A stretch of 64,000 nt of DNA. Origin: Eledone cirrhosa (lineage: Eukaryota). The stretch spans positions 14,508,001 to 14,572,000 of the forward strand of contig OZ024748.1 in NCBI GenBank assembly GCA_964016885.1. The letters run 5' to 3'. How positions within the stretch are numbered: the first letter of the stretch is position 1; every line of letters begins with the position of its first letter. The position numbers and the translations under genes were made by a program. Below, piece after piece: positions 3,976 to 62,450 of this stretch. The notes below the pieces were generated by a model. It saw only the letters and a program-made list of their open reading frames with translations. It was not told where the DNA came from and made no database searches.

Positions 3976-4224
3976 TATATATATATAAACACACAGGCAT
4001 ATATATTCAGGATATATATCTATATATGAATACATATTGACAGAGTTTTCTGAGTGTTTTGTTTATAGGTTAAGGCAATCAATGATCTTATTTACATGCA
4101 CAAGCACATATAGGGTCTAATCATAGGAGTACTCAATGCAGAGTGGTTGTAGAGACACTGCTTGGCACAACGGTCAGGATTTTTCATATCTATGTATCGC
4201 TCTCTCTCTCTATATATATATATA

Positions 4225-5389: not shown

Positions 5390-5974
5390 TACTCCATAGC
5401 TTCTGTTAAATTTGATAGCCCTGTACTTTTTTTTATACAACTGTCATCCTTCATACCATACCAATCCAATCTCCTCTCTAGCATCCTACATCTGATACCT
5501 CTTATACTCAATTTTTCTCTCTGTTCATTTATGCTTTGCCATGCTTTCCACATCCATCAAAACATGTGGGCTTCATTTCTTTCCAATCTTTGCAATTCTT
5601 CTGCTCACAGTGCCCAGGTCTCACTACCATGCAACATTTTTGTTCATATACATGCATCATACACTCTGCCCTTCATTTTAAGGAAAAAGCCTTTTGTAGC
5701 TAGCAGCAGTAGTAGCATCCTGTTCTTACTCTGGCTATGGTACTTTTGGAACAACCTCCTCCACTGCTGATTTGTTCTCCCATCTAATGGAAACTGTTGA
5801 CTCTTTCTACAGAGCTGTCTGGGCATTTAAAGGAGCTAGTATCCTGTGGGAATTCACTACTTACTGCACCTGTGCATCGGTCGCATATAAAACCTACTTT
5901 CTTTGATAGCCTGCCTCTGATCCCACTACATCTTTTATGTACCCATAACGTGAATTTTGAACATAGGATGGAAT
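5390..5974 (-). mobile_element. Degenerate RTE LINE fragment
   Basis: Minus-strand frames give SILCSKFTLWVHKRCSGI..FICDRCTG and LLATKGFFLKMKGRVYDAC, homologous to the 5988-6780 copy. Confidence 0.8.
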
Positions 5975-5987
5975 ATATATATACATA

Positions 5988-6780
5988 TATTCCATAAAAT
6001 GTACGCAATGCAGATTATGGGTACACAAGTGGGATAGCGGGCAAACTAACAGGTAGGGAAAACTACGTATGCAGTAGATGTATAGGGAAAGTTGGCAGTA
6101 GTAATCGCATTGATAGACACATTTATCCAATGCAGGTGGATTCTATATAAGTGGTTGATAGCTTCCGGTACCTAGGTGATCAGATTAGCATGGGAAGGGG
6201 GGGGGGTTCCGAGGTCATAGTATCTAGAATGAGGACAGGTTGGAAGAAGTTTAGGGAGCTGCTTCCTCTGTTGACAAAGAAGGGTTTCTCCCTGCTTATG
6301 AAAGGATGGTTATATGATGCCTGTGTGAGATGCGCGCTGCTGCAATGTAGTGAGACATGGGTAGAAACTGCAGAGGATATGTGATGGCTGGAGAGAAATG
6401 AAGCAAGCATGCTCTGTTGGATGTGCAATGTCAATGTGCGTGAACGACCAAGCATAGACGAGTTGAGAAAGAAACTGGGTATAAGAGGGATAAGTTGTGG
6501 TGTGCAGGAGAGAAGACTGAGATGGTATGGACATGTGATGCGCATGGAGGATGACCGCTGAGTAAAGAAGTGCCAAGAAATCCCTGTAGAAGGAAGACGC
6601 AGTAGAGAGAGGTAGACCACAAAAACATGGGCGGAGGTGGTGAGAGCAGACCTCAGATCGCTAAAACTCACGGAGGAGATGACGAAGGACCGTGACAAGT
6701 GGAGGTATGCTGTGCTGAATAGGACCCGTCCAACCCATGCAAGCAGGGAAAAGTGAACGTATGATGATGATGATGATGAT
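5988..6780 (+). mobile_element. 5'-truncated RTE-clade LINE (Cys/His finger, RT C-terminus, 3' tail), inactivated
   Basis: SIKCTQCRLWVHK..YVCSRC, then DSFRYLGDQI, GWKKFRELLPLL, LYDACVR..SETW, RRLRWYGHVMRM, KTWAEVVRADL, DRDKWR. In-frame stops. Ends in a (GAT)n tail. Confidence 0.9.
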
Positions 6781-7073
6781 ATGGCAACCCACTTCACTAC
6801 TGGATAGACGTGCCTGGCCACCAGCATATCACATGTAACAGAAATATATATCATGCAACAAAATATTATGGTAAATTAATCCTGTCTTAATTACCATTAT
6901 TTGATAAATGAATACTCCGTGACTCATAATCACCTACCTGGGATAAACTACTGATGTGAAGGGCTTTGGATCGCTAGGACCTACTTATCCTCAAGAAGTT
7001 ACAACATAACAATTAAGATAAACAACACTCTTCTGCAACTATACACATACACACACATATATATATATATATA

Positions 7074-7306
7074 TAATGTATAAAATCAATACAATATAAT
7101 TACCTCATTACCAGAGGTTTCCCGAATGAGGCGAATACGAAATAAACGACTTCATTCGTTCGTCAGACGAGGCAATATTTATTACCTCGTCTGAGGCAAT
7201 ATTATTGCCTCGTCTGACGAACGAATGAAGTCGTTTATTTAGTATTCGCCTCATTCGGGAAACCTCTGGTAATGAGGTAATTATATTGTATTGATTTTAT
7301 ACATTA
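7074..7306. mobile_element. Fold-back element with head-to-head minimal hammerhead ribozymes (Penelope-like pLTR remnant)
   Basis: About 100-bp near-perfect inverted arms. Plus strand: CTGACGA 7214-7220, stem II cgaatga/tcattcg, GAAAC-C-TCT-G-GTA 7259-7271, stem I caatattattgcctcgt/atgaggtaattatattg. Mirror copy on the minus strand. Follows (TA)n. Confidence 0.8.
7197..7288 (+). ncRNA. Type I hammerhead ribozyme motif, predicted cleavage after GUA at 7271
   Basis: Core boxes CUGACGA and GAAA, GUA triplet, 17-bp stem I with one mismatch. The base of stem II is an A.G mismatch. Confidence 0.7.
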
Positions 7307-7969
7307 AATTTTGCTCTGATATTTACATAGAGCACTCTTCATTTCTATGACCTTTTCTGTTTCCAACTGAAATTTCAATACTTATATATATATATATAGA
7401 CATATATATATTGTACACGCACATCCATAGGCCCTGAACTCCTGAGTTGTTGGGGATGTTTTATTGTCATAAAGCATGACTTGAGCCTTTGAAATGTTTT
7501 GGACCTCATCCACTTCCAGGTCTCAACACAACCAATTTCTTCCAAAGAAAGAAAGAACAAGAGGGTGAGAAAGAAAGATGGAAGAAGAATTGACCCCACT
7601 ACTAGACTGGTACTTTGTTTTTCAACCTCAAAAGGATAATAGGCAAAGTTGAACTCAGAATTTGCACTTGGGTCACTGGCAGCTGGAACAAATACCACAA
7701 TGCATTCTATTCAATGTTTTAACGACTCTGTCAATTTGCCACCTGGAGATATTTTAGCAGAGCATAAAATCTAAAGTGAAATATCTGTTGATTGCTACTT
7801 CAGTAGTTTCTTGTAACTCTAAGTTGATTCCTCCCTCAATATTCTTGCTGTTAGTGCTATAAAATTTCCCATTAGATAATAGCTACATCTCTTCACACAC
7901 ATGCATATATACACGTATACATCTAGTGTATTGCAGTTACCATTTTTACTATTATTATTACCCCCTACA

Positions 7970-11166: not shown

Positions 11167-11410
11167 AGGCTGGCAGCTTAGTAGTTAGGGTGTTTGGTCT
11201 GGAGTTCAAAGCAAGGACTAGGCAGTGCATTGTGTCCTTGAACAAGACACTTTATTTGATATTCCTCTAGTCCAATTAGCTAGGAAAACTGAGTTATATC
11301 TCTAATTCAAAGAGTCATATCACACAGTTGTGCCATACTGAGTCTCCCTGAGAACTACATTAAGTTTGCATGTGTTTGTGGAATACTCAGCAGTTAGCAT
11401 GTTAATTTCA
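11167..11410 (+). mobile_element. Degenerate CORE-like SINE
   Basis: gcttagtagttagggtg..gagttcaaa..ttgtgtccttgaacaagacactttattt..gagtctccctgagaactac. Confidence 0.55.
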
Positions 11411-11492
11411 TGTTAATCATCTTTACATATATATATGTAAAGATGATTAGCATGAAATTAACATGCTAACTGCTTAGTATTCCACAAACACA
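11371..11492. repeat. Near-perfect 122-bp palindrome centred on (AT)n
   Basis: tgtgtttgtggaatactcagcagttagcatgttaatttcatgttaatcatctttacatat followed by its reverse complement with 2 mismatches. Confidence 0.9.
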
Positions 11493-15105: not shown

Positions 15106-15261
15106 CCTGGATGGCGTGGCACCAACATAACTTTACATAGAACGGGGTGGTGTGGATGGGGTGGGGGTGGTGGCGGGACGGGGGTATATATATATATATA
15201 CATAAGGATGGTGTGTATATATATATAGTATAAACAAAGTTTCATACACTTAACATGTACG

Positions 15262-15397
15262 TGCAACCATGGCCACCAGAGTATATTGGAGGAGGCATTG
15301 ATATAATTGTCCATGCCCCCAAAGAGGACCCAATTTAAAAGTGCCTCCTCCAATATACAGTGGTGGCCATAACTGGACCCTGAAACCAATGGTTGCA
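15262..15397. mobile_element. Small inverted-repeat element (MITE-like)
   Basis: atggccaccagagtatattggaggaggca / tgcctcctccaatatacagtggtggccat, with outer tgcaaccat/atggttgca. Confidence 0.55.
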
Positions 15398-15983
15398 TAT
15401 ACAAGTTCAGTGTATGAAACTTTGTTTATACTAAATAAGCCCTCTAGCAACAGATTGGGCACTGTTTTCCTTGATCTTTCATCTATAGATTTCCACACAC
15501 ACACATATATATATATTAAGGTGGAGTGTATCTATGTGATATATATATATGTATACATTTACATAAGTAAATGACTGTTTACAATTGTAGGCTCCTTAAC
15601 CACACTGCCATGTCTGTACCTACCTATATATGATTAGATATTTTTAATTAACTAAGTAGTTACTTAATTAATGTATATAATTGTTTCTACTTTAGGCACA
15701 AGGCCAGCAATTACCCAGTACATTATTGGTACTTTATTTTATCGACCCCGTAAGGATGAAAGGCAAAGTTAACCTTGGCAGGATTTGAACTCAGACCGTA
15801 AAATTAATGTATATAATGTGAAGCAATCCTCTCTGGAAAGAATCAGATATGTTCCAACATGGAGAAGGATAAGCTCCACTAAAAATACCCAAACATGCCA
15901 TGTATCAGGACAGTACCCCTTAGACTCGAACAGGAGTTATGGAGCCATCCCCACCTTATATTTAATAGAAAATAAGTACTCAC

Positions 15984-26023: not shown

Positions 26024-26264
26024 ATTCTACTTTAGGAGGGTCATGCTGACAATAAAAACACAAGCACATGTTGGTTTTCACTTCAATTTATTATAAATTT
26101 CCGGTTGGTTGGTTAGTTCCATAACTGGATGGTTGTTTATAATAAATTGAAGTGAAAATCATCAGGTGCTTGTGTTTTTATTGGCAGCATGACCCTCCCA
26201 AAATATAACAATATCTATTTCAACAGACGTTTTCAGATAAGAAATCTTGCAAATTAAATTCAAA

Positions 26265-26560: not shown

Positions 26561-26735
26561 TATATATAGTAGTAGTAGTAGTAGTAGTAAAGGTGCAATT
26601 GGATTGCATTCACAAGGGGTATGCCAAGATGAGCACTCGATACTATTGGGGAGCAGAGTATCAATAATAATTGTTTCTACTTTAGGCACAAGGCCAGCAA
26701 TTACCCAGTGCATTACTGGTACTTTATTTTATATC

Positions 26736-27030
26736 AATAATAATAATTAGGGAACAAAGAATCAGTGTTGCATCATATACATATTCAATTACATATCTTT
26801 CACTGCCGATTAGCTTGAGGAACAATCGATTATCTTTGATCCTGTCTCTGGAATTGAAGGTTCCTCAGATATGTGTTCTCATGTGAGAACACATATCTGA
26901 GCAGCTTCCAATTTCAGAGTCAGAAATGAACATAATCGATCATTCCTGATCAGCAGTGAAACATACGTAATATGTAATTAAACATGTATATGGAGCAATA
27001 CTGATTCTTTGTTCCCTAATTATTATTATT
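26736..27030. mobile_element. Older imperfect fold-back element with hammerhead-like core and enlarged domain II
   Basis: About 140-bp diverged arms centred on gttctc-atgt-gagaac (26880-26885). Plus strand: acatat-CTGAGCA (the other arm reads CTGAGGA)...GAAAC-ATAC-GTA-atatgt at 26891-26975. Confidence 0.6.
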
Positions 27031-27573
27031 ATTATCATTATATGTATATATATATATATATCATCATCATCATCTTCGTTTAACGTCCATTTTCCACGTT
27101 AGCATGGGTTAGACGGGAGTTGTCCCACTTGAGGCAAGGTTGGTTGGGTGACCATCTCTCGCTCATATAGGACTATCTGGCAGGTTTTCTACGGCTGGAT
27201 GCCCTTCCTAACACCAACCACATTTACAATGTGGAACTGGGAACGTTTTACCATGTTACCTACACAACCTGTTACCTATATATATATATATATCATCATC
27301 ATCATCATCACCGTTTTACGTCCGTTCTTCCATGCTAGTATGGGTTAGACGGGTTGTCCTGTTGTGGGCAGTGTCTGGTCGGCTGACCATGCCTTGCTCA
27401 TACAGGAACTGATTTTGGCTTGATTTCTACAGCTGGATGCTCTTCCTAACACCAACCTCATTTACAGTGAGTGCTAATACATAAGCATATATACATAAAT
27501 ATATGTGAGTCCCGGGTACAATCGGGGGTAACCACAGTAAGTAAGGTACTCAATATATTATTAGAGTGTAAAC

Positions 27574-27679
27574 ATCAAATTATATATAGAAATGGCTTCT
27601 ACAAGGCTAGAACTTTTCATTCGAAAGAAATCATCAGGAAAGCCCTAGTTCTGTAGAAGCCATTTCTATATAAAATTTG

Positions 27680-27681
<2 letters not shown>
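27574..27681 (-). mobile_element. Hairpin element with CUGAUGA-stem II-GAAA core lacking stem III
   Basis: About 45-bp imperfect stem closing ctgatga-tttctttcgaat-gaaa on the minus strand (tcatcag at 27631-27637). Tail toward 27500 with acactct and gagtacct. Confidence 0.55.
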
Positions 27682-28862: not shown

Positions 28863-29135
28863 GGGTGCAGACATGGCTGAGTGGTTAGGGAGTTTGCTCA
28901 CCAACTCTTAGATTCAGGCTCAATCACACTGTGTTGCATCTTTAGAAAGTGTCTGCTACTATAGCCTCAGATTAACCAATGTCTTATGAATGTGTATCCC
29001 ATATATGTGTGTGTATTCATTTACCAAACTTGAAAAAATAAGTACTATATTTGATGTGGTTGACTAAATCCCTTCAAAGTAGTGCTCTAACATGGTCACT
29101 GTCTACTAACTGAAACCAGTTAAAAGAGTAAAAGA
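28863..29135 (+). mobile_element. Degenerate tRNA-headed SINE with TAAAAG tail
   Basis: ggtgcagacatggctgagtggtt head, tail atggtcactgtctactaactgaaaccagttaaaag. The tail recurs at 14110-14165 and in tandem at 36470-36770. Confidence 0.55.
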
Positions 29136-30454
29136 AGAGAGAAAAGAAAACGTGGTCAAAACTGAACAGATGATCATTACTAAGACACTATGTTAATAAT
29201 AATCCTTAAGTTTACCTTAAATGTTGAAATCTACATCGTGTTCTAGCATAAATATTTATTATTTATTTAATTACTTCACTAATCATATGCATGTCATTCA
29301 AATTTGACTGAATCATAGAGGTATTCATACTCTGATGAGGACAAACAAATGTCTGAAAAGTATAAGAATAATCTCATGTTTTTCTATGTACAAAGGAAAC
29401 ATTGAAAACGTTTATACTTCACACATTCATTTTGTCAGCCACAGCCTGAAATTGATAAATAATAGTTATTTATAACATGCTGAGTTTCTGAAATTATGTT
29501 GAATGCTGATTAAACAGACTAAAGTAGGTAGAGGGAGAGAGTGTGTGTGTGTGGTTATTGATTCTTCTTCCTTAATTAGGGAGTGGCTCATGATATTCAG
29601 ACCTTAATTATGGACTACCCCTCCTCCCCGCCTGATATTCAGACCTTAATTAAGGAGTGGTCCCTTTCAACCTTGAAAATACAGAAATAAAAAAATTCAT
29701 AATTTGATTAGTATGCAGTCTATTTAACTCTTATGATACTAAACCACATAAACCCCCCGTTCTATGATACTAAGCTGTTTATTTTGAAGTATTTATATTC
29801 ATACTTATCAAAAACCCTTCCACCATAAGGTTATGCAAGAACCTTTGTTAAGTTATGGTTCAAACTCTAGCTTAATTATGTGAAAGCTAGTTATATAACT
29901 GAACCCCTCCAAATTCTTGATAATTTTCAAAATGATGTGAAAATCATTCACATTTTCTTTCATTATAACAGTGTTTTGCAAACTTTTTCAAGCGGGTAAC
30001 CATTTTTGGTTCAGAATTTTTTTGTGGTACTCCAAAGTTTAAATATACATATATAAATATCTTCATCATCATTTTACGTCCACCTTTCCCTGCTTGCAAG
30101 GGTGGGATGGGTCCTATATATATATACGAGTGAACCAATAGCAAATAAATGTTACACACCATTACTATATATATATATATATAATCAGCAGTTTTACATT
30201 TCCATTTCCATGTTAGCATGGGCTGGAAGGGTCTTTTTGAGGTAATGTTTTATAGCCGGTTGCACTTCCTGACACCAATCTCTTTAATTGCTTCTAGCAT
30301 GCAGGATACAGTTCAGTATATGTATTCAAAATTGGATACACACAGCTGTGTATATATATATATATACATATATTAATTTATAACTCTATAAAGTTAACTG
30401 TTTCTAATACAGTTTATTTCATATACATATATATATACTTATATACATATATAT

Positions 30455-30650
30455 GAAAAGAGTCAAGACCCCCAATGGCTGAGCTATGGCTGTTCCGACA
30501 GCTAGATCCAATCAGTTCAGATCTAGCTGTCAAATTGCCCGGAGCTCAGCTCTCGGAGTCTTGAATCTTTTCATATTACCCACTCTACTACTCCAAGTAT
30601 CGAGTACTCTGGTGCCTTATGGTCCACCTGGTATCTTACCACACCCTTTT
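30455..30650 (+). mobile_element. Diverged copy of the 59437 fold-back family
   Basis: Imperfect inverted arms gaaaagagtcaagacc.../...gagtcttgaatcttttc, and the same tail (ttacccactctactactccaagtatcgagtactctggtgcc..tggtccacctgg). Confidence 0.7.
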
Positions 30651-30666
30651 TGTTATATATATATAC

Positions 30667-30817
30667 ATATTGAAAGGATAACAAGGACGATTGATTACTC
30701 CTTCATTGCATTTATTGGTAGGTGACGCGCGTTTTGCCACTGATCAGCGAAACGCGCGTCACCTACCAATAAATGCAATAAAGGAGTAATCAATCGTCCT
30801 TGTTATCCTTTCAATAT
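30667..30817. mobile_element. Fold-back element retaining the 3' half of a hammerhead (GAAAC-GCGC-GUC)
   Basis: About 65-bp inverted arms. gaaacgcgcgtc at 30749-30760 is mirrored by gacgcgcgttt. The inversion point falls in the stem II/CUGA region (ctgatcagc). Tail to about 30920, then (TA)n. Confidence 0.7.
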
Positions 30818-31140
30818 ATTACACTCTGTATAGCTCTACACCTCATCACAGAAGTGAACCTAAACATCGAGTGCTCTCCCTGGTGAACCTGCAGTAACTC
30901 CAAGTTACACCCCCTGGATATATATATATATATAAATAAAACCTACCTTAATTTACAACTCTATATAATTAATTGCCTCTAATACATTGGTATCTCAATG
31001 AAAGGACAAGATATATTAATACATTAATAAACTAATAACCTACTTGGAGAAATATTAATATATATATATAAAGGTAGAACACTGGAAGGTAATATCCGTA
31101 GTGGTAGAGCACTCAGTCCATGGGACGAATTTGGTAGAAG

Positions 31141-31336
31141 TAGTAACACAACAGTTAGTTCACCATACCGAGAACAATTGTTTCACCTTATGCGGATCTT
31201 CAGCTCAGACTGGCAATGGTTATACGGACAGTAGTAACAGAACAGTAGTTCCATATAACCATTACCAGTCCGAGCTGAAGATCCGCATAAGGTGAAACAA
31301 TTGTTCTCAGTATGGTGAACTATAGTTGTGTTACTA
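31141..31336. mobile_element. Fold-back element with head-to-head hammerhead ribozymes
   Basis: About 85-bp inverted arms. Plus strand: CTGAAGA 31275-31281, short stem II cc/gg, GAAAC-AATT-GTT 31294-31305 with palindromic loop, stem I accagtccgag/ctc(a/g)gtatggt. Confidence 0.75.
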
Positions 31337-33224
31337 TATATAGATCCATGTGGTGCTTCTGTCTGATAATCCTGTTAATACAAGAGTGAAACTCCTGAGT
31401 AACAAGATGTATCACTTAGCCATAATAAAGAATATGTATATGACTGAGTGAACATTCAAGCTTTGATTTTGCCTTGTATACTCAGTAAAGTTATTGATGA
31501 TTGTGGGTCAAAGAAGTTAGTTTAGTCTTGCTAAATACATAATAGCCACTTTAGTGTTAGTAATGCATTCAGTGCACTCTGTAAAGTGATAGTGTTGGTA
31601 CAATATTAAAATGCACTCAGTGTACTCAGTAAAATTGTTGTTGTTATTAAGGGAATCCAACCAGCCAGAAGAAATCACCTCAAAAATGGAATGTATGTGT
31701 GAGATGTGCTTGTCCAACCCATCGACTGTTCAACCATGGTGACTCGTCCAACATGACAAGCAGACATAAAATGAAACTGAATAAATAATGAAGATGTGAA
31801 GAGTTTCATCTTGAATTTGAGATATGAACTGAGATCAGAAATTATGTATTACTGATCTCAGCAAAGGATTAATTATCTGAGATTAATTAAAGATAAAAGA
31901 TTCACATCAAATTCATCTGTGAGTGTGTGTCTGTCTGCGTCCATCTGTGACTGTGTGTATGTGTCTGTGTGTGTTTGTGTCTGTATGTCTTTGTCTTTGA
32001 TTGTGTTGGTCTGTGTGACTGTGTGTGCATGCAGTGATGCATGAATAATTGTTTCTAATCATGACAAGTTTAATCATAGCATGGAGAAATTTACATTACC
32101 ATTCCACAATTTAATATTGTCTGATAACAGAGGTCATCTGATTAACCCTTTTATTACCAAACTATTCAAACCTAACTCTGTTCTAGGAAATAAAACCAAA
32201 CATTTTAAAGGGCTTCTATTTAAATTAAAATTTTCCAATATAATTTTCTGCAAGAACCTTATGTTAAGTTATTAAGTAATTAAATAATCATTTAAGGGAA
32301 TCCCTAAAAATTCTTCATTAATCCTTTTATTACCAGACCAGGCACAGTGAGTCTGGTTCTATGAAATGAACCGCCCATTTTAAGGGTTTCTATTTAAATT
32401 GACATTACCCAACATAACTTTATATGAGAACCATATGTTAAGTTAATATCTTAGTAATGAAATAATTAATAGTTTTACTAAGTCCCACAACATACTTCAT
32501 TAATTAAATGAAATAAAGTGTATTTCATTTGGTCATGAAAGGTTTACCACCCACACTTATTCCTTCATGACTGATACTGTATCCTCTTTCAGCAACTTGT
32601 AACATTTACCCCACACAATTCCTCATATTTCTGCATATATATGTAATCCAAGCTCTGCATATGCTTGTCTTTATGTATGTATATATATGTGCGTATGTAT
32701 GTATGTTTGTGTGCATGTGTCTTTATGTATGTCTTTGTGTATGTATGTGAGTCTTGATGTATGTACATATGTATGTGTGCATGTGTTTTTATGTATGTCT
32801 TTATGTGCATATGTATGTAAATTTGTAGGTATGTATGTGTGCATTAATGTATGTTTGTATGTAAGTATGTATGTATGTAAGTTTGTAGGTATGTATGTGT
32901 GCCTTTAAGTATGTTTGTATGTATGTGTGTGTGCATGTATCTATGTATGTACTTGCTTCTTTGCATACATATATATATATAAGTATGTATGTGCATTCTT
33001 GAATGATTGTGTGCGTGTGTGCATCACCCTAGATTTATGTATGTGCGAATATGTTTATGTCAACACTTCAATTTCTCAGCTCATTTGCACTCAATTTTCT
33101 ATGACAACTTACTCTTGTTACAATAGTGTAAGTAAATATATTGTCTAAAATAGTCTGTGTGTAAAAATATTATCGACAGTAGTCTGCGTATATATATTCT
33201 GTAGAATTGTCTCTCTCTTTATTT

Positions 33225-35860: not shown

Positions 35861-37256
35861 TGAATCCTTTCCTTAACATATTTCTAATGAAAGACACTGG
35901 CTATGATTTTCAAATAATTTTGAAAATGATCAGAATTTGGAGAGATTTAGTAATAAAACTCTCTTTCTCATTGTTAAGTTGGTGTTGAAAAATGAATTAC
36001 TGGGATTGATATGATCAACTGAAATTCATTTGTGACAATGCCCCAATATGACTGCAGCCTAATTTGTGTGTGTTTATGATTGTGATGGTGTCTGTGTGTA
36101 AATCCAGTAACTAACTCTCTAAGTCTAAAGACTGCCTCAAGCCAGGAGACTTGTCAGGCTGGTGCTTATCCTGGTTTCATGGTGTGAAGCAACTGAGAGT
36201 ACAAGACTTCCTCCAGTCCATCGTAGGGTTAAACCTTCAGCTATCACTGGTACCCATTTTCAGCTGAGTATACTTGAGCAACGTGAAATGAAGTGTTTAG
36301 CTGAAAAACACAACACACAACCCTGCCCAGGAATCGAACCCACAACATTATTATCATAAATCCAACACACTTACTAGTAGGCATCCACAAGTAACTAAGT
36401 GGTTCAACAAAATAGATGAAAAATAGGTGTCAGACTTGAACAGTTAAAAAAGTACTAGAGTGAACATGATCAACTTATGTCCCTTTAAGGTCCCCGGCAT
36501 GGCCACAGTTTAGTGAATGAAACCAGTAAAAGTATAAAAGCAGTCATTCAGAAAAAAAATACAGAAAGAAAGAAACCGCAAAAACTATGTATGCTTGAAA
36601 AATATCCCTTTAAGCAGTGCCCCAGCATGGCCCTACTCTAATAACAGGAACTAGTAAAAGAATAAAAGAATGAAAGCAGTCATTCAAAAATAATAAAAAA
36701 CAGAAAGGAAACAAAAAAAACTATAAATGCCAACATGGCCACAGTCTAATAACTGGAATCAATAAAAGAACAATTTCCTGATCTAAATAAATACCATTAT
36801 ATGGAACTAAGTCAGTAGATTATTCCATAGATGAATGGCTTCATGTTCCATCATAACAACATTGCTATTTCTAACCATCTTAAAGATTTAACCAAAACAA
36901 AATCAAAATCTCAAACATTTTAGATTCTATTTGGTATTTAGTAAAAATACTTGTATTTTACTTAGAAATGGCTTTATTTCAGATACTGGTAAAAAAGCAA
37001 ACAAAAAATTTCCTCCCCGACCTCATTAAACATACATGCAGACACACACAAGCAAACACACACACACAAGCTAACATGTACACACACAAGTAAACACACA
37101 TACGCACACAAGCAAACACTTACATACACACACACAAGCAGAATATTTTGTACCATACCCATCTTGGTAGTATGCCATGATGGGTATGTTACAAAATATT
37201 CTGTGTGTGTAGTTTGCGCATGTGTAAACATTTATGCATATATATTTGCTCATGTG

Positions 37257-39959: not shown

Positions 39960-40182
39960 TACTGCTGCATTGCTTGGGTTCCTTTCTTTAAACATCTTTT
40001 GCTTTTTTCATTGTTTCTTAACCAATAACATTTAGATATTTTCTGAAGAATTTGTGTGTTTGTGTATATATATATATATATATATATAAGCAGAAGGGAT
40101 ATTCAATTTGTTGGTTATTCAACCAATATAAATGTTTATAACTGATTCAGAGCACTCAACAGATTTTCTGGAGTATAATATT

Positions 40183-40544
40183 CAATGATATTAAATAAAT
40201 GGAAACTATATTTATAAAACCATATTTATTCTATTATATATATTTCAAGGGTACCAAAACTTTGGTACGCTTTCATCAGATAAAATACAAAGTTTGTTTT
40301 ATAAATATTGACATAACCAAGAAAAGATATCTTAACGGTTCAAGTTTTTCTTGGATAAGTTTTCTTGACTATCAAAGAAAAACTTGAACCATTAAGGTAT
40401 CTTTTCTTGGTTATGTCAAAATTTATAAAACAAACTTTCTATTTTATCTGATGAAAGCGTACCAAAGTTTTGGTACCCTTGAAATATATATAATAGAATA
40501 AATATGGTTTTATAAATATAGTTTCCATTTATTTAATATCATTG
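40183..40544. mobile_element. Long fold-back element (about 170-bp arms) with head-to-head hammerhead ribozymes
   Basis: Inverted arms caatgatattaaataaatggaaac.../...gtttccatttatttaatatcattg. Plus strand: CTGATGA 40448-40454, stem II aag-c-gtaccaaa/tttggtac-c-ctt, GAAA-T-ATAT-A-TA 40481-40492, stem I tattttat/atagaata. Mirrored on the minus strand. (TA)n on both sides. Confidence 0.8.
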
Positions 40545-40548
40545 TATG

Positions 40549-52443: not shown

Positions 52444-52650
52444 TGTGCCAAGTAGTTCGAGTGGAAGGATGTATACAGCTCTCACCACTTCCATCAAGGA
52501 AGACCTTGATGGAAGTGGTGAGAGCTGATCTCATATCGCTAAAGCTCACGGAGGTGATAAAAAAAAACAAGTTGCAAGATGCTCTATTCTAGAAGGAACC
52601 GTCCAACCCATGCAAGATTGGAACAATGGACATAAAATGATGAATAATGT
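52440..52650 (+). mobile_element. RTE LINE 3' fragment
   Basis: gtggtgagagctgatctcatatcgctaaagctcacggagg..accgtccaacccatgcaag matches 6635-6745. Confidence 0.65.
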
Positions 52651-53886
52651 GATATACAAACATACATACTTATATATATATATAATAATAATAAGTATCG
52701 TACCAGGAAAAACAGGAATGACTAGGCAGGAAGATTTGGTCAGAAGGAGTTCATTCTTGAACTTATGTTTCTGCACAATAACCGTCTACATGCACACACA
52801 CACATATATATATGTGTTTATACACACATGTATATATATACATATTTACACATAAGTCTGCTAGTATATGTGTCTCTTCTCTTTACATTTGACAGTGCAG
52901 GTGGTGACATTTGTTTATGTTTTATACCAACAGAGATATGAGATGGCTAGTTTGTGTGTGATAAAATTATTATGTATTAATATCATAGAGTCTGTTGTGT
53001 GAAGCTAGAGGTAGAGTAGCAATGATAGACAATCAAAAGTTTAAAAAATAAAACAGTTTGACAAGGATTAAAATAAAGTGCGAAAGTTAGATTTCATGTT
53101 AGAATTATGGAATTATCAATTGGATAATGAATATATTTAAAGATGTCATTTAATATCTGCTTTACTGTTAGAGAGCATATTGACCTTATAGTAAGAGGCC
53201 CTCACTAAAGATAGTTAGAGCTTGTTGGTGCAGCAATAATTATTGTGATTATAGTTGGGGGTTTTTAATCTGAAAATTACTGGGCAATTTTCTTTAATTT
53301 GAAATTATTGAATTTTATTAATTGTCTTCCAAACATGATAAATCTGGCTGAAAGCTATGGCTAAAAATCATGTAATTCCTCACAATTTGAAAGTGGTAGA
53401 GTGACATAAACCATATAGTTACAGACAAATGTCTTGCAACTATTTGTTTTTGTTTTTCAATTTATTCATTAGACTGTGGCCATGCTGGGGCAATGCCTTG
53501 ATCTGGTTGATCATATCAATCCCATTACTAGATTTTCAAGTCTGGTACTTATATTATTGATCTTTCTTTTGTTGAACAGCTATATTGTGGTGCATAAACG
53601 CAACCAGACACAAATATAAACAAAGATAAACAAACACACAGATATATATTTAAAAACGGGGTTAAAGTTCCATGCAAATAAAAAATGATAAGTTGAAAAT
53701 AAAGGCATATATGTGTACAGGTGTATATAAAAATTATGTTTTTCTTTAATCAGACAAAACAAATATATTTACTGGGTTGCGCTTATAAAGTAGTCTTTTA
53801 AAAAAAATGATTTTCTATCAAGTATAGTTATTATTTTGTGTCTTTTTAAAGAATGTGTGTGTGTGTATGTGTATATATATATATAA

Positions 53887-54030
53887 GAAAAGAGTCAGGA
53901 CCCCAACGGCTGAGCTCCGACCGTTTCAACAGCTAGATCTGAACCTTTTTCCTATTACCCGCTATACTACCCCAAGTATCGAGTACTCTGGTGCATTATC
54001 GTCCACCTGGTTCCTTACCACACTTTCTTT
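53887..54030 (+). mobile_element. Internally deleted copy of the 59437/30455 family
   Basis: Left arm gaaaagagtcaggaccccaacggctgagctc joined almost directly to the shared tail (agtatcgagtactctggtgc..gtccacctggttccttaccacac). In (TA)n. Confidence 0.65.
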
Positions 54031-54139
54031 GTTATACACACATATATATATATATAGTTGAAAAGGGGGATATGGAGAGAGAGAAGAGATCTATCACTCT
54101 TTTTCTATTTACATACACACAAATAATAATAATAATAAT

Positions 54140-55391
54140 GCAGAAGGAAATGAAAGGAAAAATTAATGTGGAATACATGCACAGACTGAGACTTATTCTC
54201 AAATTGAAACTGAATGGATGGAATAAGATGGAAGCTATCAATACACGGGCAGTATCACTCCTTAGATATGGGGCAGGGGTGATCATATGGACAGTGGAAG
54301 AGCTAAATGGTTTAGATCGAAGGACAAGAAAGATATTGACTAGATATTGGGTATTTCAATGAAAGAGCGACACAGGCAGATGATATATACCATGGAAAAG
54401 GGGAGGAAGAGGACTTATAGAGTGCAAAAACAACATTAGAGCAGAAGAATATAACAAGGTGTTATACATAAAAACTTCCACAGAACCACCGTTGCTGGAA
54501 GTAATAAGGTCAAAGATGTGCAAAATAGAAGATTGCAAAGAAAAAACACAGTACAAGCATTTGAAGATGGATGAAACTGAAATAGATGGACAGAAAAAAG
54601 AATGTATGGACAATTCCAGAGAGATGTTGAAAATAGGACAGATAGAGAAAAAGGTGGTTATGGATGGCTAAAAGTGATCTAAAACTGGAAACAGAAGCCT
54701 TAATCTGTGCTGCTCAAGAACAAACACTAAGATCTAACTACATCAAGCATAGTGTAGACCACACAGCTGAAAGTGATAAGTGTATAATTTATAACATGAA
54801 TGGAGAAACTGTATGGCATATTACCAATCAATGCACATCACTAGCTCAGAACAAATATAAGAGATGTTAAGACAACATATACACTTGACAATGCAGAAAA
54901 GTGGTATGAACATAACCCAGAGGGCGTTATCGAAAATGATGATGCAAAAATCCTGTGGGAGTTTGTAATAGAGTGTGACCATGAAATAGAACATAGGAGA
55001 CGAGATATTGTACTAATTGAGAAAGAAAGCAAGCAGTGTTGGATCATAGATATAGCATGTCCAGTTGATAACAAGGTATGCAATAAAGAAGGAAAAATAA
55101 TCAATAGATATTACAGGTTAGCTTGGCAGATTAAGCAGTTGTGGTCACTGAAAATGGTGGTGGTAATACCAATAATAGTTAGAGTCTTGGAAACAGTGAG
55201 TAAAGATCTGGGGAAGAACATTAAACAAATAAGGATTGTAATATGGATGGAAGACTTTAAAAAAAACAGCATTGCTTGGAACAGCTCGAATACTCCAGTA
55301 GGTACTCGAAAAATAAGGGGTGTTACCTCAGTTCACTGGTAGTGAACAGCTTACACTGTAATATATCTCCAGCAATAGAAGCTGAGCGAAG
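54140..55391 (+). mobile_element. R4/Dong-clade non-LTR retrotransposon remnant (RT thumb, zinc knuckle, restriction-like endonuclease) in (TAA)n
   Basis: EY..RLRLILK..LNGWNK..AINT.AVSLLRYGAG..LDRRTRK, GGRGL, LKLETEALICAAQEQ, ETVWHI..C, WYEHNPEGVIEND..KILW..RRRDIVLIEK..IIDIACP, VVIPIIV. Flanked by (AAT)n at 54121-54139 and 55392-55420. Stops and frameshifts present. Confidence 0.9.
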
Positions 55392-57670: not shown

Positions 57671-57702
<32 letters not shown>

Positions 57703-58774
57703 GTAGGAGGTGAGTTTTATTGTAGTACAATAAAGCAATGCAGATATCGGATAAGAAGCACTCTACAGTTTGTAGGACTGGAGTATGTTGATTTAAAACT
57801 GCACTATTCACAAGTGTTTTTTAACCTTCATATCATGTCTTCCTATTTTATCTGATGAAAACACAAATGTTATTGCATGATGATATTTGTTTTTGAAATA
57901 CGCATAATAAAATACATGGAACTCTTTTAACCATCTTTTGATCTTATATATATATATATATATACACATATATATATATATATATATATAATATGCACAT
58001 AACCTATTTGCTATGTGTCTGTAAATGACAAAACCTATACACACACACATACATATATGTATTGTATGTATGCATATGTATTATATGTATGTATGCATAT
58101 GTATGCCACATTTACAATGTGTCTGTAAATGACAAAAGAAATATATATATATATATATGTATATGTGTGTGTGTATGTATATATAACAATGAATATTATT
58201 GTTTACTTGTCTTCTTTCTAAAACATTTTCATGCTACAACACTGCTGAAAATTTCTTCATGAAAATTGAAATTAATTCAATTCAGTCATGTTTAGAGAAG
58301 GCAGAATACATCAGTTGATATTAAAATGCATTAAATGAATTTTACCTGCTGGTGCAAGTTTAGAAAGAAGGCAGTAGTTGAAACCAGCTCTGATTAGGTG
58401 TCTGTTATTGATGATACCCCCCACTGTGTCAATCTGACACAAATCTAAATGTTAATGAGTGCTAATGAGACTATTTTTCTTGTTTTTGAAATAACAAATG
58501 AAATAATTATTAAAATGATTACATTGCAATTTTTTCAACTAAAATAAAATTTCAAGATCAGCATAAACATCTTTAAAAAATCATTTCTTTTAGAATTGTC
58601 TTCATGATTACTTTATCACTTAACCTATTTTCTTACACAGTTATTTGAAAATTAGATTCCTCATTATTATTCTCCTGATCATGTGACCATCAATAATATT
58701 CGAAAGCTGTGAATAAATTTTACATGTTAAAATTATTAAAATGTTTCAAAGAAGGACATGAAATATTTTATACG

Positions 58775-58925: not shown

Positions 58926-59436
58926 GTAATGCTGTTACTTCAAATTTCTCCCCTATATTAAATTTCTGATTTAGGCATATCACCAATGAATACAAAAAAA
59001 ACTAGCACAGAAAAAAATGAAAGAATGCAACTGGCACCAGTATTACATCACCAGCAACAAATGAAGTGTGACAAGCAGATAATAATAATAAATAAACGAT
59101 GATGACGACAGTGATGATGATGATGATAAGGATTTCTTTTATAATAATAAAAAAAAAAGATGTAAACATTGTATTTCTTTCTTGGTGCTATACAAATAGA
59201 GAGTCTGGTTGTCAAACTTTTCAGTGTTCAGACAGGCTAGGATATTTTTTTATAATTTATATAAAAGACATAGACATTAGAAATAAAACAAAAAATAGAA
59301 TTACTACTTAAAGTATTTAAGATGACAATATTATAAAAATGTCACCTGAAGTGACGGATGATAAGAAAGAAAGCTGTATATATGTGTATATGTGTCTCTC
59401 TCCCTCTGTGTGTGCTTGTCCATATATATATATACA

Positions 59437-59640
59437 TAGGAACGAGTAGGACCACGACGGCTGAGCTCAAGCCGTTTCGACGGCTAATTCTGGACAGAAT
59501 TAGCCGTCCAGAATTAGCCATCGAAACGGCTTGAGCTCAGCCGTCGGGGTCCTACTCGTTCCTATTACCCACTCTACTACCCTAAGTATTGAGTACTTTG
59601 GTGCGTTATGGTCCACCTGGTTCCTTACCACATTTCCTTC
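59437..59640 (+). mobile_element. Fold-back element with hammerhead 3' half (GAAAC-GGCT..AGCC-GUC) plus unpaired tail
   Basis: Inverted arms 59437-59564, gaaac 59523-59527, gtc 59543-59545. Tail ttacccactctactac...gagtactttggtgcg..tggtccacctggttccttaccaca. In (TA)n. Confidence 0.7.
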
Positions 59641-59742
59641 GTTATATATATACATATATATATATACACATATATATATATATATACACATATATATATA
59701 TATACACACATATATATATATATATATATACACATACACTCA

Positions 59743-60448: not shown

Positions 60449-60784
60449 TGGAGGCACATGGCTTAGTGGTTAGAGCATTGGACTTGCAATCGAAAGGTTG
60501 TGAGTTCAATTCTCAGACCGGGTGATGTGTTGTTTCCTTGAGCAAGACACTTTATTTCACATTGCTCCAGTTTACTCAGCTGTAGAAATGAGATGAGAGG
60601 GACTGGGGTCCCTATCATTCCACTGCAAAGTGGTCGTGGAGGTGCCACGGCAAAAAAGCACCCAGCACTCACTGTAAATGAGGTTGGTGTTAGGAAGGGC
60701 ATCCAGCTGTAGAAATCAAGCCAGAATCAGCTCCCGTCCCACCCTTGCAAGCAGGGAAAGGTGGACGTAAAAGGAGATGATGAT
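60449..60784 (+). mobile_element. Full-length tRNA-headed SINE with CORE-like segment and RTE-type 3' tail
   Basis: A box tggcttagtggtt, B box gagttcaattc, CORE-like gtttccttgagcaagacacttt. Tail cccgtcccacccttgcaagcagggaaaggtggacgt plus GAT repeats, similar to the LINE end at 6722-6780. Confidence 0.85.
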
Positions 60785-61918: not shown

Positions 61919-62450
61919 GTCTAGAAAGAGAGACACAGAGAGCTTTTTCTGTTTGACTTTCAGGAGGTATTTTTATGTTCACTTTGTGTGGCTAAACTTT
62001 TAGCAAAAGAAATCAGCAAAGAGGGGGATAAATTCAATAGCTTACACTACACAAACTTTATATATTTTAGATATTTTCTATTCTATCTCTCTGGTCTTGT
62101 TTACAAAGAAAGAAGTAATAAATAGAAAAACTAATATAGATTTTTTTACATATGGTTTTTTGGTTTATTTATATTTTTATACTTTTTCAATTGAAATGGA
62201 AGGAAGCAAGCTGGGCAAAAATTGTTATCTGAACAATGCTCAATGGAACAGACACTTTTCATTCCAATTGCTGCTATCATATTGCAAGGGAATATATATA
62301 TATATTTATATTGCATATGTTGTATACGTTAGAGGATATATATATATATACTTTATTTATAGTATATATATATCCTCTAACATATACAACATATGCAATA
62401 TAAATATATATATATTCCCTTGCAATATATATATATATAAGTATGTATAC

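Follow-up and report, generated by a model that had tools for sequence, protein, structure and literature searches.

Two hammerhead motifs on opposite strands, 22 nt between the arms that carry them, raise two questions: what kind of event placed them in a microsatellite-rich stretch, and can they still act as ribozymes there? We addressed both for the region 31070-31336, within a 64-kb window (the whole stretch of DNA that was analysed) that is AT-rich (28-41% GC per 2 kb), non-coding, and full of TA, CA and triplet microsatellites. It is evidently of animal origin, with repeats reminiscent of octopus. Our findings favour, with a probability of about 0.72, a model where the locus is a short, protein-less insertion made by the machinery of Penelope-like elements (PLEs) into a (TA)n microsatellite. 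As a single locus, 31070-31336 matters little. How PLEs make tandem and inverted insertions with a one-sided tail is treated as an open question in two recent reports (PMC8557442, PMC11167929), and with about nine short insertions arranged in this way, some 4% of its length, the window could serve as material for the PLE insertion mechanism.

Anatomy of the hairpin and its hammerhead

The region 31070-31336 is a hairpin locus made of two inverted copies of one motif, with arms delimited by local alignment at 31141-31228 and 31251-31336. Across the locus, from left to right, (TA)n runs enclose a one-sided tail of 71 nt, the forward copy, a 22-nt end repeat and the inverted copy; on the minus strand the inverted copy comes first, followed by the 22-nt end of an upstream copy, the forward copy and the tail, again between (TA)n runs. 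The left TA run (31058-31070) is the presumed insertion target and a second run lies on the right flank (31335-31342), no target duplication being discernible in either. The tail (31070-31140, minus strand) stands downstream of the minus-strand hammerhead copy and is not duplicated in the other arm; a sequence-only reading had given 31070-31336 as the extent of the twin hammerheads, of which 31070-31140 lies outside the hairpin. The forward, tail-bearing arm (31141-31228, minus strand) would represent the 5'-truncated 3' end of an element, the spacer (31229-31250, minus strand) a partial-tandem copy of the 3' end of that arm, and the inverted arm (31251-31336, plus strand) a 5'-truncated copy in the opposite orientation, which ends at the tail boundary against (TA)n. 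Each arm segment is 86-88 nt long and holds one type I hammerhead, the two cores being only ~70 nt apart. The supposed twins are thus one sequence, present once per strand: two motifs do occur, but as a single inverted repeat on opposite strands, with one sense core per RNA. The arms differ by four substitutions (transitions), three of them at CpG, and by a small indel difference near the outer end, a pattern that fits decay after insertion and disfavours a sequencing chimera. The spacer, previously given as 26 nt, measures 21-22 nt, yet it is indeed a near copy of the arm end, 31229-31250 being a same-strand direct repeat of 31139-31161 (21/23 columns, E 0.014) at an offset of 91 nt. Inverted arm, spacer and forward arm all end at most ~2 nt from one site, 31-33 nt past the cut site, and both arms stop within ~1 nt of the same 5' point. 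The tail is not clearly coding, and its frames were set aside as evidence: of the three on the minus strand, just one stays open throughout 31070-31172, and the frame with a long run over the 3' part of the tail meets a stop upstream.

Both copies retain the core CUGANGA ... GAAA ... UH around three helices. In the minus copy (31160-31216, predicted cut after 31173), CUGAAGA (31203-31197), a helix II region (31196-31185) and GAAAC-AAUU-GUU (31184-31173) are enclosed by helix I (31208-31204/31172-31168) and its extension (31216-31211/31165-31160). The plus copy (31262-31318, predicted cut after 31305) has its helix I at 31270-31274/31306-31310, with one C.A mismatch, and the extension at 31262-31267/31313-31318; the segments CTGAAGA (31275-31281), TCC-GCATAA-GGT (the helix II region, 31282-31293) and GAAAC-AATT-GTT (31294-31305, GAAAC-AAUU-GUU as RNA) lie exactly where the sequence-only reading had placed them. 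Helix I closes beside the core with 5/5 and 6/6 pairs in the minus copy and with 4/5 and 6/6 in the plus copy, running on past a 2x2 internal loop to 11/11 and 10/11 pairs, respectively, and 11/11 pairing was reached in 51 of 200000 shuffles. The stem I proposed earlier, ccgag/cucgg, is found in neither copy and is a composite of the two, although the helix itself is present: the plus copy has ccgag/cucag (4/5 pairs) and the minus copy cugag/cucgg (5/5, one G.U). The very short stem II was correctly described, with two C-G pairs over U.U, and helix III consists of 2 bp with a palindromic AAUU loop, the triplet being GUU. The base of helix II (10.1-11.1), paired and usually G-C in hammerheads, is here the unpaired U.U; since natural hammerheads with U10.1-U11.1 and a 2-bp helix II exist (PMC3088659), this feature predicts weaker activity rather than none.

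A type I descriptor returned seven matches at four loci in the window (7166/7214, 31203/31275, 40279/40448 and 57852), against a mean of 0.24 and a maximum of 2 over 100 block-wise dinucleotide shuffles of the window; a match with a palindromic loop III appeared in 0/100. The hammerhead at 31070-31336 is real, beyond chance, with the core in both copies and descriptor matches far above the shuffles, as had been called from sequence. The Rfam model RF00163 (Hammerhead_1) aligns all core positions, at 11.2 bits (E 6.2), where the gathering score is 34. No Rfam hammerhead match was obtained for the clear hammerhead at 40448 either, so the model is insensitive to these variants. At gathering thresholds the whole window yielded only a tRNA-like match, and among the 35 sub-threshold matches obtained by E-value in 29000-33000 none was a hammerhead, the strongest being miRNA models. 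A degenerate hammerhead pattern found 0 matches in a collection of bacterial and archaeal genomes, and blastn of 31070-31250 against phages found none, both being weak controls for a window that is evidently eukaryotic. Taken on its own, the modelled motif is plausible as a weak, dimer-assisted ribozyme. Cleavage by dimers of small PLE hammerheads was reportedly observed by Lunse and colleagues in 2017.

Folding in place

The whole element folds with an MFE of -143 kcal/mol on the plus and -163 kcal/mol on the minus strand (z -19 and -22, 0/200 shuffles each). On either strand, the single sense core lies downstream of its own antisense copy, and in read-through RNA the probability of helix I is ~1e-48 or lower, the core being fully paired. 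In isolation, the minus arm reaches a helix I probability of 0.42-0.45 and the plus arm 0.06-0.14 at its paired positions, and adding spacer and tail to the minus arm lowers its value to 0.03. Even in transcripts of nascent length, cut just after the core, the core is already paired in the MFE structure (equilibrium folds, not kinetics). Since the antisense arm lying upstream sequesters the core in read-through RNA, the hammerhead at 31070-31336 is probably inactive in place, and cleavage or dimer action at the locus is unlikely according to these models. An intramolecular hammerhead dimer between the arms was also considered, and rejected with the arms on opposite strands. If the locus is transcribed, its likely product would be hairpin dsRNA for the siRNA pathway; siRNAs are known to arise from inverted Penelope copies (PMC3681739). 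The hairpins of the window may also be a source of siRNAs and will mislead the annotation of miRNAs and MITEs.

Related hairpins, a Penelope-like origin and its alternatives

Self-BLAST of the window gave 26 inverted pairs within 1.5 kb, from which 15 hairpins were kept and 11 rows (dispersed inverted repeat pairs or simple repeats) dropped. Six of the 15 (7071, 30451, 30667, 31141, 40180 and 59436) border on (TA)n on one side and have a tail of 71-101 nt on the opposite side, with a full hammerhead in three and, by eye, a hammerhead 3' half in the others. The five that share the layout of 31141 lie at 7071-7309, 30451-30576, 30667-30817, 40180-40547 and 59436-59565, with tails of 74-101 nt. 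The left arm of the 7071 hairpin begins inside a TA run; the region 7071-7383 has arms of 107 nt that show two differences and each hold a complete type I hammerhead (cores 7166 minus, 7214 plus) with long helix II and GUA triplet, (TA)n on the left, a 74-nt tail with GAGCACTC at 7330, and a spacer in which short stretches of the arm end recur in direct and inverted orientation. At 40088-40547, 178-nt arms each contain a textbook PLE-type hammerhead (40279 minus, 40448 plus) with a 10-bp helix II, a palindromic AUAU loop and an AUA triplet, both missed by the Rfam models; here (TA)n is on the right and a 92-nt tail carries the motif GAGYRCTC at 40150. One family occurs in three copies (30451-30654, 53885-54032 and 59436-59643) that share a 3' boundary and a ~78-nt tail with GAGTACTC/T, and that retain, by eye, only the 3' half of a hammerhead-like motif. 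Their 5' truncation and arm length differ, the 53885 copy having an inverted arm of ~65 nt and a forward arm of ~10 nt, and this variation is a retrotransposon pattern, not that of a MITE.

Several other loci of the window resemble these to varying degrees. The hairpin of 30667-30918 stands just upstream of GAAAC-GCGC-GUC, a hammerhead 3' half, and has a 101-nt tail with the motif at 30869; together, 30451, 30667 and 31070 form a run of three such insertions within 900 bp, with TA runs between. At 57700-57946, a single plus-strand hammerhead (core 57852, long helix II) ends in (TA)n and is accompanied by an oppositely oriented tail-like stretch, with GAGTGCTT at 57756, that resembles the 40180 tail; this is apparently an asymmetric member of the same insertion kind. 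An older hairpin at 26590-27045 (77% arm identity) has a degenerate hammerhead-like 3' half, and its tail (motif at 26631), which ends in (AGT)n, appears split from the arm by an inserted dispersed-repeat fragment. In 29327-29365, CUGAUGA, a short helix II and GAAA are followed almost directly by the helix I complement, the segment with helix III and cleavage site being missing. Eight hairpins have no recognised hammerhead (5935-6028, 11371-11492, 15222-15437, 26025-26208, 27574-27681, 37130-37210, 52476-52527 and 62279-62428), and TA runs lie at the centre or on the flanks of some of these.

The literature already describes hammerheads at the ends of PLEs as well as inverted copies and tails. 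According to Craig et al. 2021, PLE insertions are partial tandems with 5' truncation, next to which lies an inverted copy that is likewise 5'-truncated; they have a tail of 30-40 bp, often at one end only, hammerheads within the terminal repeats, and a (TA)n bias in Naiad, Hydra and Neptune, the last by hypothesis about its linker (PMC8557442). The locus studied here presents an inverted 5'-truncated copy next to its 5' end (31251-31336 versus 31141-31228), an upstream partial-tandem copy of pseudo-LTR type that is very short (the 22-nt spacer), and a hammerhead near the 3' end, whose cut site lies 31-32 nt from the arm end, with (TA)n on both sides. Layout, presence of a tail at a single end, 3'-end hammerhead and (TA)n are shared with the endonuclease-bearing PLEs (Penelope/Poseidon, Neptune, Nematis and Hydra), which differ in that 31070-31336 has neither an ORF nor an autonomous partner in the window and has a 71-nt tail, the five similar hairpins having 74-101 nt, instead of the 30-40 bp published (PMC8557442). 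Naiads have the TA bias in common with the locus but, as characterised in that report, are without canonical hammerheads (PMC8557442). Cervera and de la Pena 2014 report dual hammerheads on opposite strands, 100-700 bp apart, and attribute to PLE hammerheads a small palindromic helix III and low in vitro activity (PMC4209133). These motifs, including the Schistosoma dual ones, share with ours the type I core, the palindromic helix III or loop and the opposite-strand pair; yet their helix II has 7-8 bp with G10.1-C11.1, against 2 bp over U.U here, and at 31070-31336 helix I extends beyond the internal loop and the cores are closer (PMC4209133). By these features the hammerhead is closer in appearance to canonical or retrozyme motifs, with short helix II and extended helix I, than to a PLE-minimal motif with long helix II. 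The probable assignment to PLEs is drawn from structure and layout. Of the 52 ORFs in the window with 100 aa or more, 16 were selected and compared with Pfam, none matching at E 0.01, and no PLE protein was found; BLAST of the window for further copies of the 31141-31228 family gave only short low-score matches, a search with fuzzy 20-mers gave three matches, all to one unrelated repeat word, and two core-specific motifs of the element had 0 matches in the PMC8557442 supplement. With no PLE protein and no second copy in the window, the tie to an autonomous PLE is made by layout only. The repeat annotation of Octopus vulgaris lists 31 recently active Penelope-like families (PMC13282606), and no description of cephalopod PLE hairpins was found in the literature searched, whose scope left most subscription journals outside.

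According to the PLE reading, a PLE endonuclease would nick or cut the TA run, and reverse transcription would start at a distal start site (the tail end, 31070), copying the tail, the hammerhead and ~25 nt further upstream. The reverse transcriptase could then jump back to a proximal start site at the tail boundary for 22 nt, giving the spacer. Two sources are conceivable for the inverted arm, a second cDNA initiated at the proximal start site with the opposite DNA strand as its primer, or the first cDNA folding back on itself; CpG deamination would later erode the arms. For the donor element, weak cleavage by the hammerhead is probable, or cleavage of a dimer formed via the palindromic AAUU loop. 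The idea of two start sites comes from a single lizard element, for which Frangieh et al. 2024 report a PLE protein that cuts and extends both strands of AT-rich DNA, two internal reverse transcription start sites that bound the tail, and a predicted protein dimer (PMC11167929). In that reaction hammerhead cleavage was not needed, and earlier work cited there found the tail to be required for endonuclease recognition (PMC11167929). As to the origin of the inverted arm, the asymmetry of the 53885 copy speaks for a second cDNA with priming of its own, a later deletion of one arm being another possible source of it. The near-equal arms at 31141 and in most hairpins (found by a search biased toward symmetric cases) favour instead fold-back or a defined RNA 5' end, as two independently truncated cDNAs would rarely coincide at the same 5' stop.

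The spacer, which copies the far end of the arm and is unusual in this, fits re-initiation or a 91-nt tandem donor alike. The latter would make the donor a non-LTR retrozyme, that is, a head-to-tail array of 91-nt units whose circular RNA is moved by PLE enzymes, with the spacer as the remnant of the penultimate unit; such a reading, which we hold to be unlikely, departs from the PLE one only in the nature of the donor. Both arms end at a unit boundary and the spacer is in exact 91-nt tandem register, sitting where the 3' end of a preceding copy would, as the sequence-only reading had surmised in calling it the residue of a preceding tandem unit. Retrozymes derive from PLE terminal repeats, with consensus lengths of 51-972 bp, and one of nine retrozyme dimers tested cleaved (bioRxiv 10.64898/2026.07.22.740005). 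The hammerhead also matches the description of the axolotl HHR_Amex2, whose monomer is 22% cleaved after 1 h and whose dimer cleaves better; with retrozymes of this type it shares a 2-bp helix III with tetraloop, the U.U at the base of helix II and an extended helix I (PMC7229834). Nevertheless, the inverted arrangement, the tail and the GUU triplet set 31070-31336, known from sequence alone, apart from these retrozymes, as does an implied unit of 91 nt versus 330-350 nt (PMC7229834), typical invertebrate units being ~150-450 bp. Where a retrozyme would show at least two complete hammerhead units in direct tandem, the locus has one unit and 22 nt of a second; the search for an array that had been suggested, run on the 64-kb window, found neither an array nor a second unit copy, leaving a natural 91-nt unit unsupported. 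Nor would a pure tandem or circular template explain the one-sided tail, and the 91-nt circle is weakly structured (MFE -10.1 kcal/mol, helix I probability ~0.18), unlike the highly self-paired circles described. Among four other hairpins, the best match of the spacer falls in the hairpin's own arm in three, over 10-15 nt in two of them and weakly over 8 nt in one, while 30667 shows no such match. Templated insertion would thus be common in the window, and this or a jump of the reverse transcriptase would explain 31229-31250 without a satellite donor.

The remaining alternatives fare worse still. Long inverted arms and TA flanks would also suit a MITE or foldback element inserted at a TA target, a non-autonomous DNA transposon whose termini are inverted repeats and whose hammerhead would be a passenger or a coincidence, but the left repeat is not terminal, having a 71-nt tail outside it, and in place of fixed-end inverted repeats at both termini the neighbouring three-copy family varies in arm length and centre around a fixed 3' boundary. 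Together with full hammerheads of differing sequence in the arms of three hairpins, this makes such an origin very improbable. Equally poor are the prospects of a selected functional RNA, whether a ribozyme cassette working in both directions or a gene for a hairpin RNA. Both arms retain an intact core, the hairpin is highly stable, and transcription starting in the spacer or at the 5' end of an arm could let the minus copy fold with the helix I probability computed for the isolated arm, but this is lost once spacer and tail are included, the differences between the arms resemble neutral CpG decay, a helix I pair of the plus copy being lost to one of them, similar hairpins are scattered through the window, and no Rfam family reaches its gathering score here. 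Palindromes are a known type of sequencing chimera, and a fold-back artefact of sequencing or assembly might be invoked on that account. We consider it scarcely credible, given arms that differ at four sites, three of them CpG transitions, and by an indel difference, and given a spacer, a tail and a layout common to other elements, unlike a read chimera.

The palindrome in the tails

The tail of the locus contains a near-palindrome, GAGTGCTCT (31106-31114, minus strand), 26 nt from its start. The corresponding motif GAGYRCTC is found in eight copies in the window (4127, 7330, 26631, 30602, 30869, 31107, 40150 and 53981), mostly 20-30 nt into tails, against 1.0 expected, and 0/100 shuffles reach eight; the copy at 4127 is associated with no recognised hairpin. 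Five of the eight fall within 70 nt outside a hairpin end, a space that makes up 3.2% of the window (binomial 2e-6). The motif was first noticed by eye, and correction was made through seven tails defined by geometry, with 59565 dropped as a family duplicate. GAG..CTCT is common to five of these seven, from different hairpin families, the other two being without the motif. Any gapped 9-mer shared by five tails arose on the sense strand in 1/3000 shuffled and 4/3000 random-segment sets, and on either strand in 2/3000 and 32/3000, respectively; a looser 8-mer test was borderline after post-hoc correction (60/5000 and 318/5000 null sets). As RNA, the sense GAGURCUC forms a self-duplex of -9.6 to -10.6 kcal/mol, whereas the spelling in the 7309 tail does not self-pair (-3.9 kcal/mol). 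Outside the window, the three GAGYRCTC spellings occur 13 times in the 584,131 characters of the PMC8557442 supplement, which does not point to enrichment, and by eye the motif is absent from the start-site RNA of the lizard element as printed in the PMC11167929 supplement. No description of a tail motif was found in the literature searched, for which the motif itself did not serve as a query.

Common descent of the tails explains the sharing of the motif without function. GAGYRCTCT is a candidate cis-signal, and it is tempting to speculate that GAGURCUCU, ~20-30 nt into the tail, is a conserved PLE signal through which template RNAs would pair as dimers, or a dimeric RT-endonuclease would bind; one cDNA would then start from each end of the tail, the two being primed on opposite strands. 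We regard this idea as rather doubtful; if true, it would explain why the tail is on one arm and why the inverted arm starts at the tail boundary, and the tiny hairpins would be frozen twin-priming intermediates of PLE integration, abundant enough for the mechanism to be read from them. The conserved palindrome offers, in any case, a short target for mutagenesis in vitro with a PLE system.

Elsewhere in the window, the broken ORFs of 53943-55342 are by eye what we take to be the C-terminal part of a non-LTR retrotransposon with a restriction-like endonuclease; ORF 54845-55339, within this stretch, has six homologous proteins at 57-72% identity and no Pfam match. The tRNA-like Rfam match lies at 60459-60516 (34.8 bits, model positions 8-63) and is probably the head of a tRNA-derived SINE.
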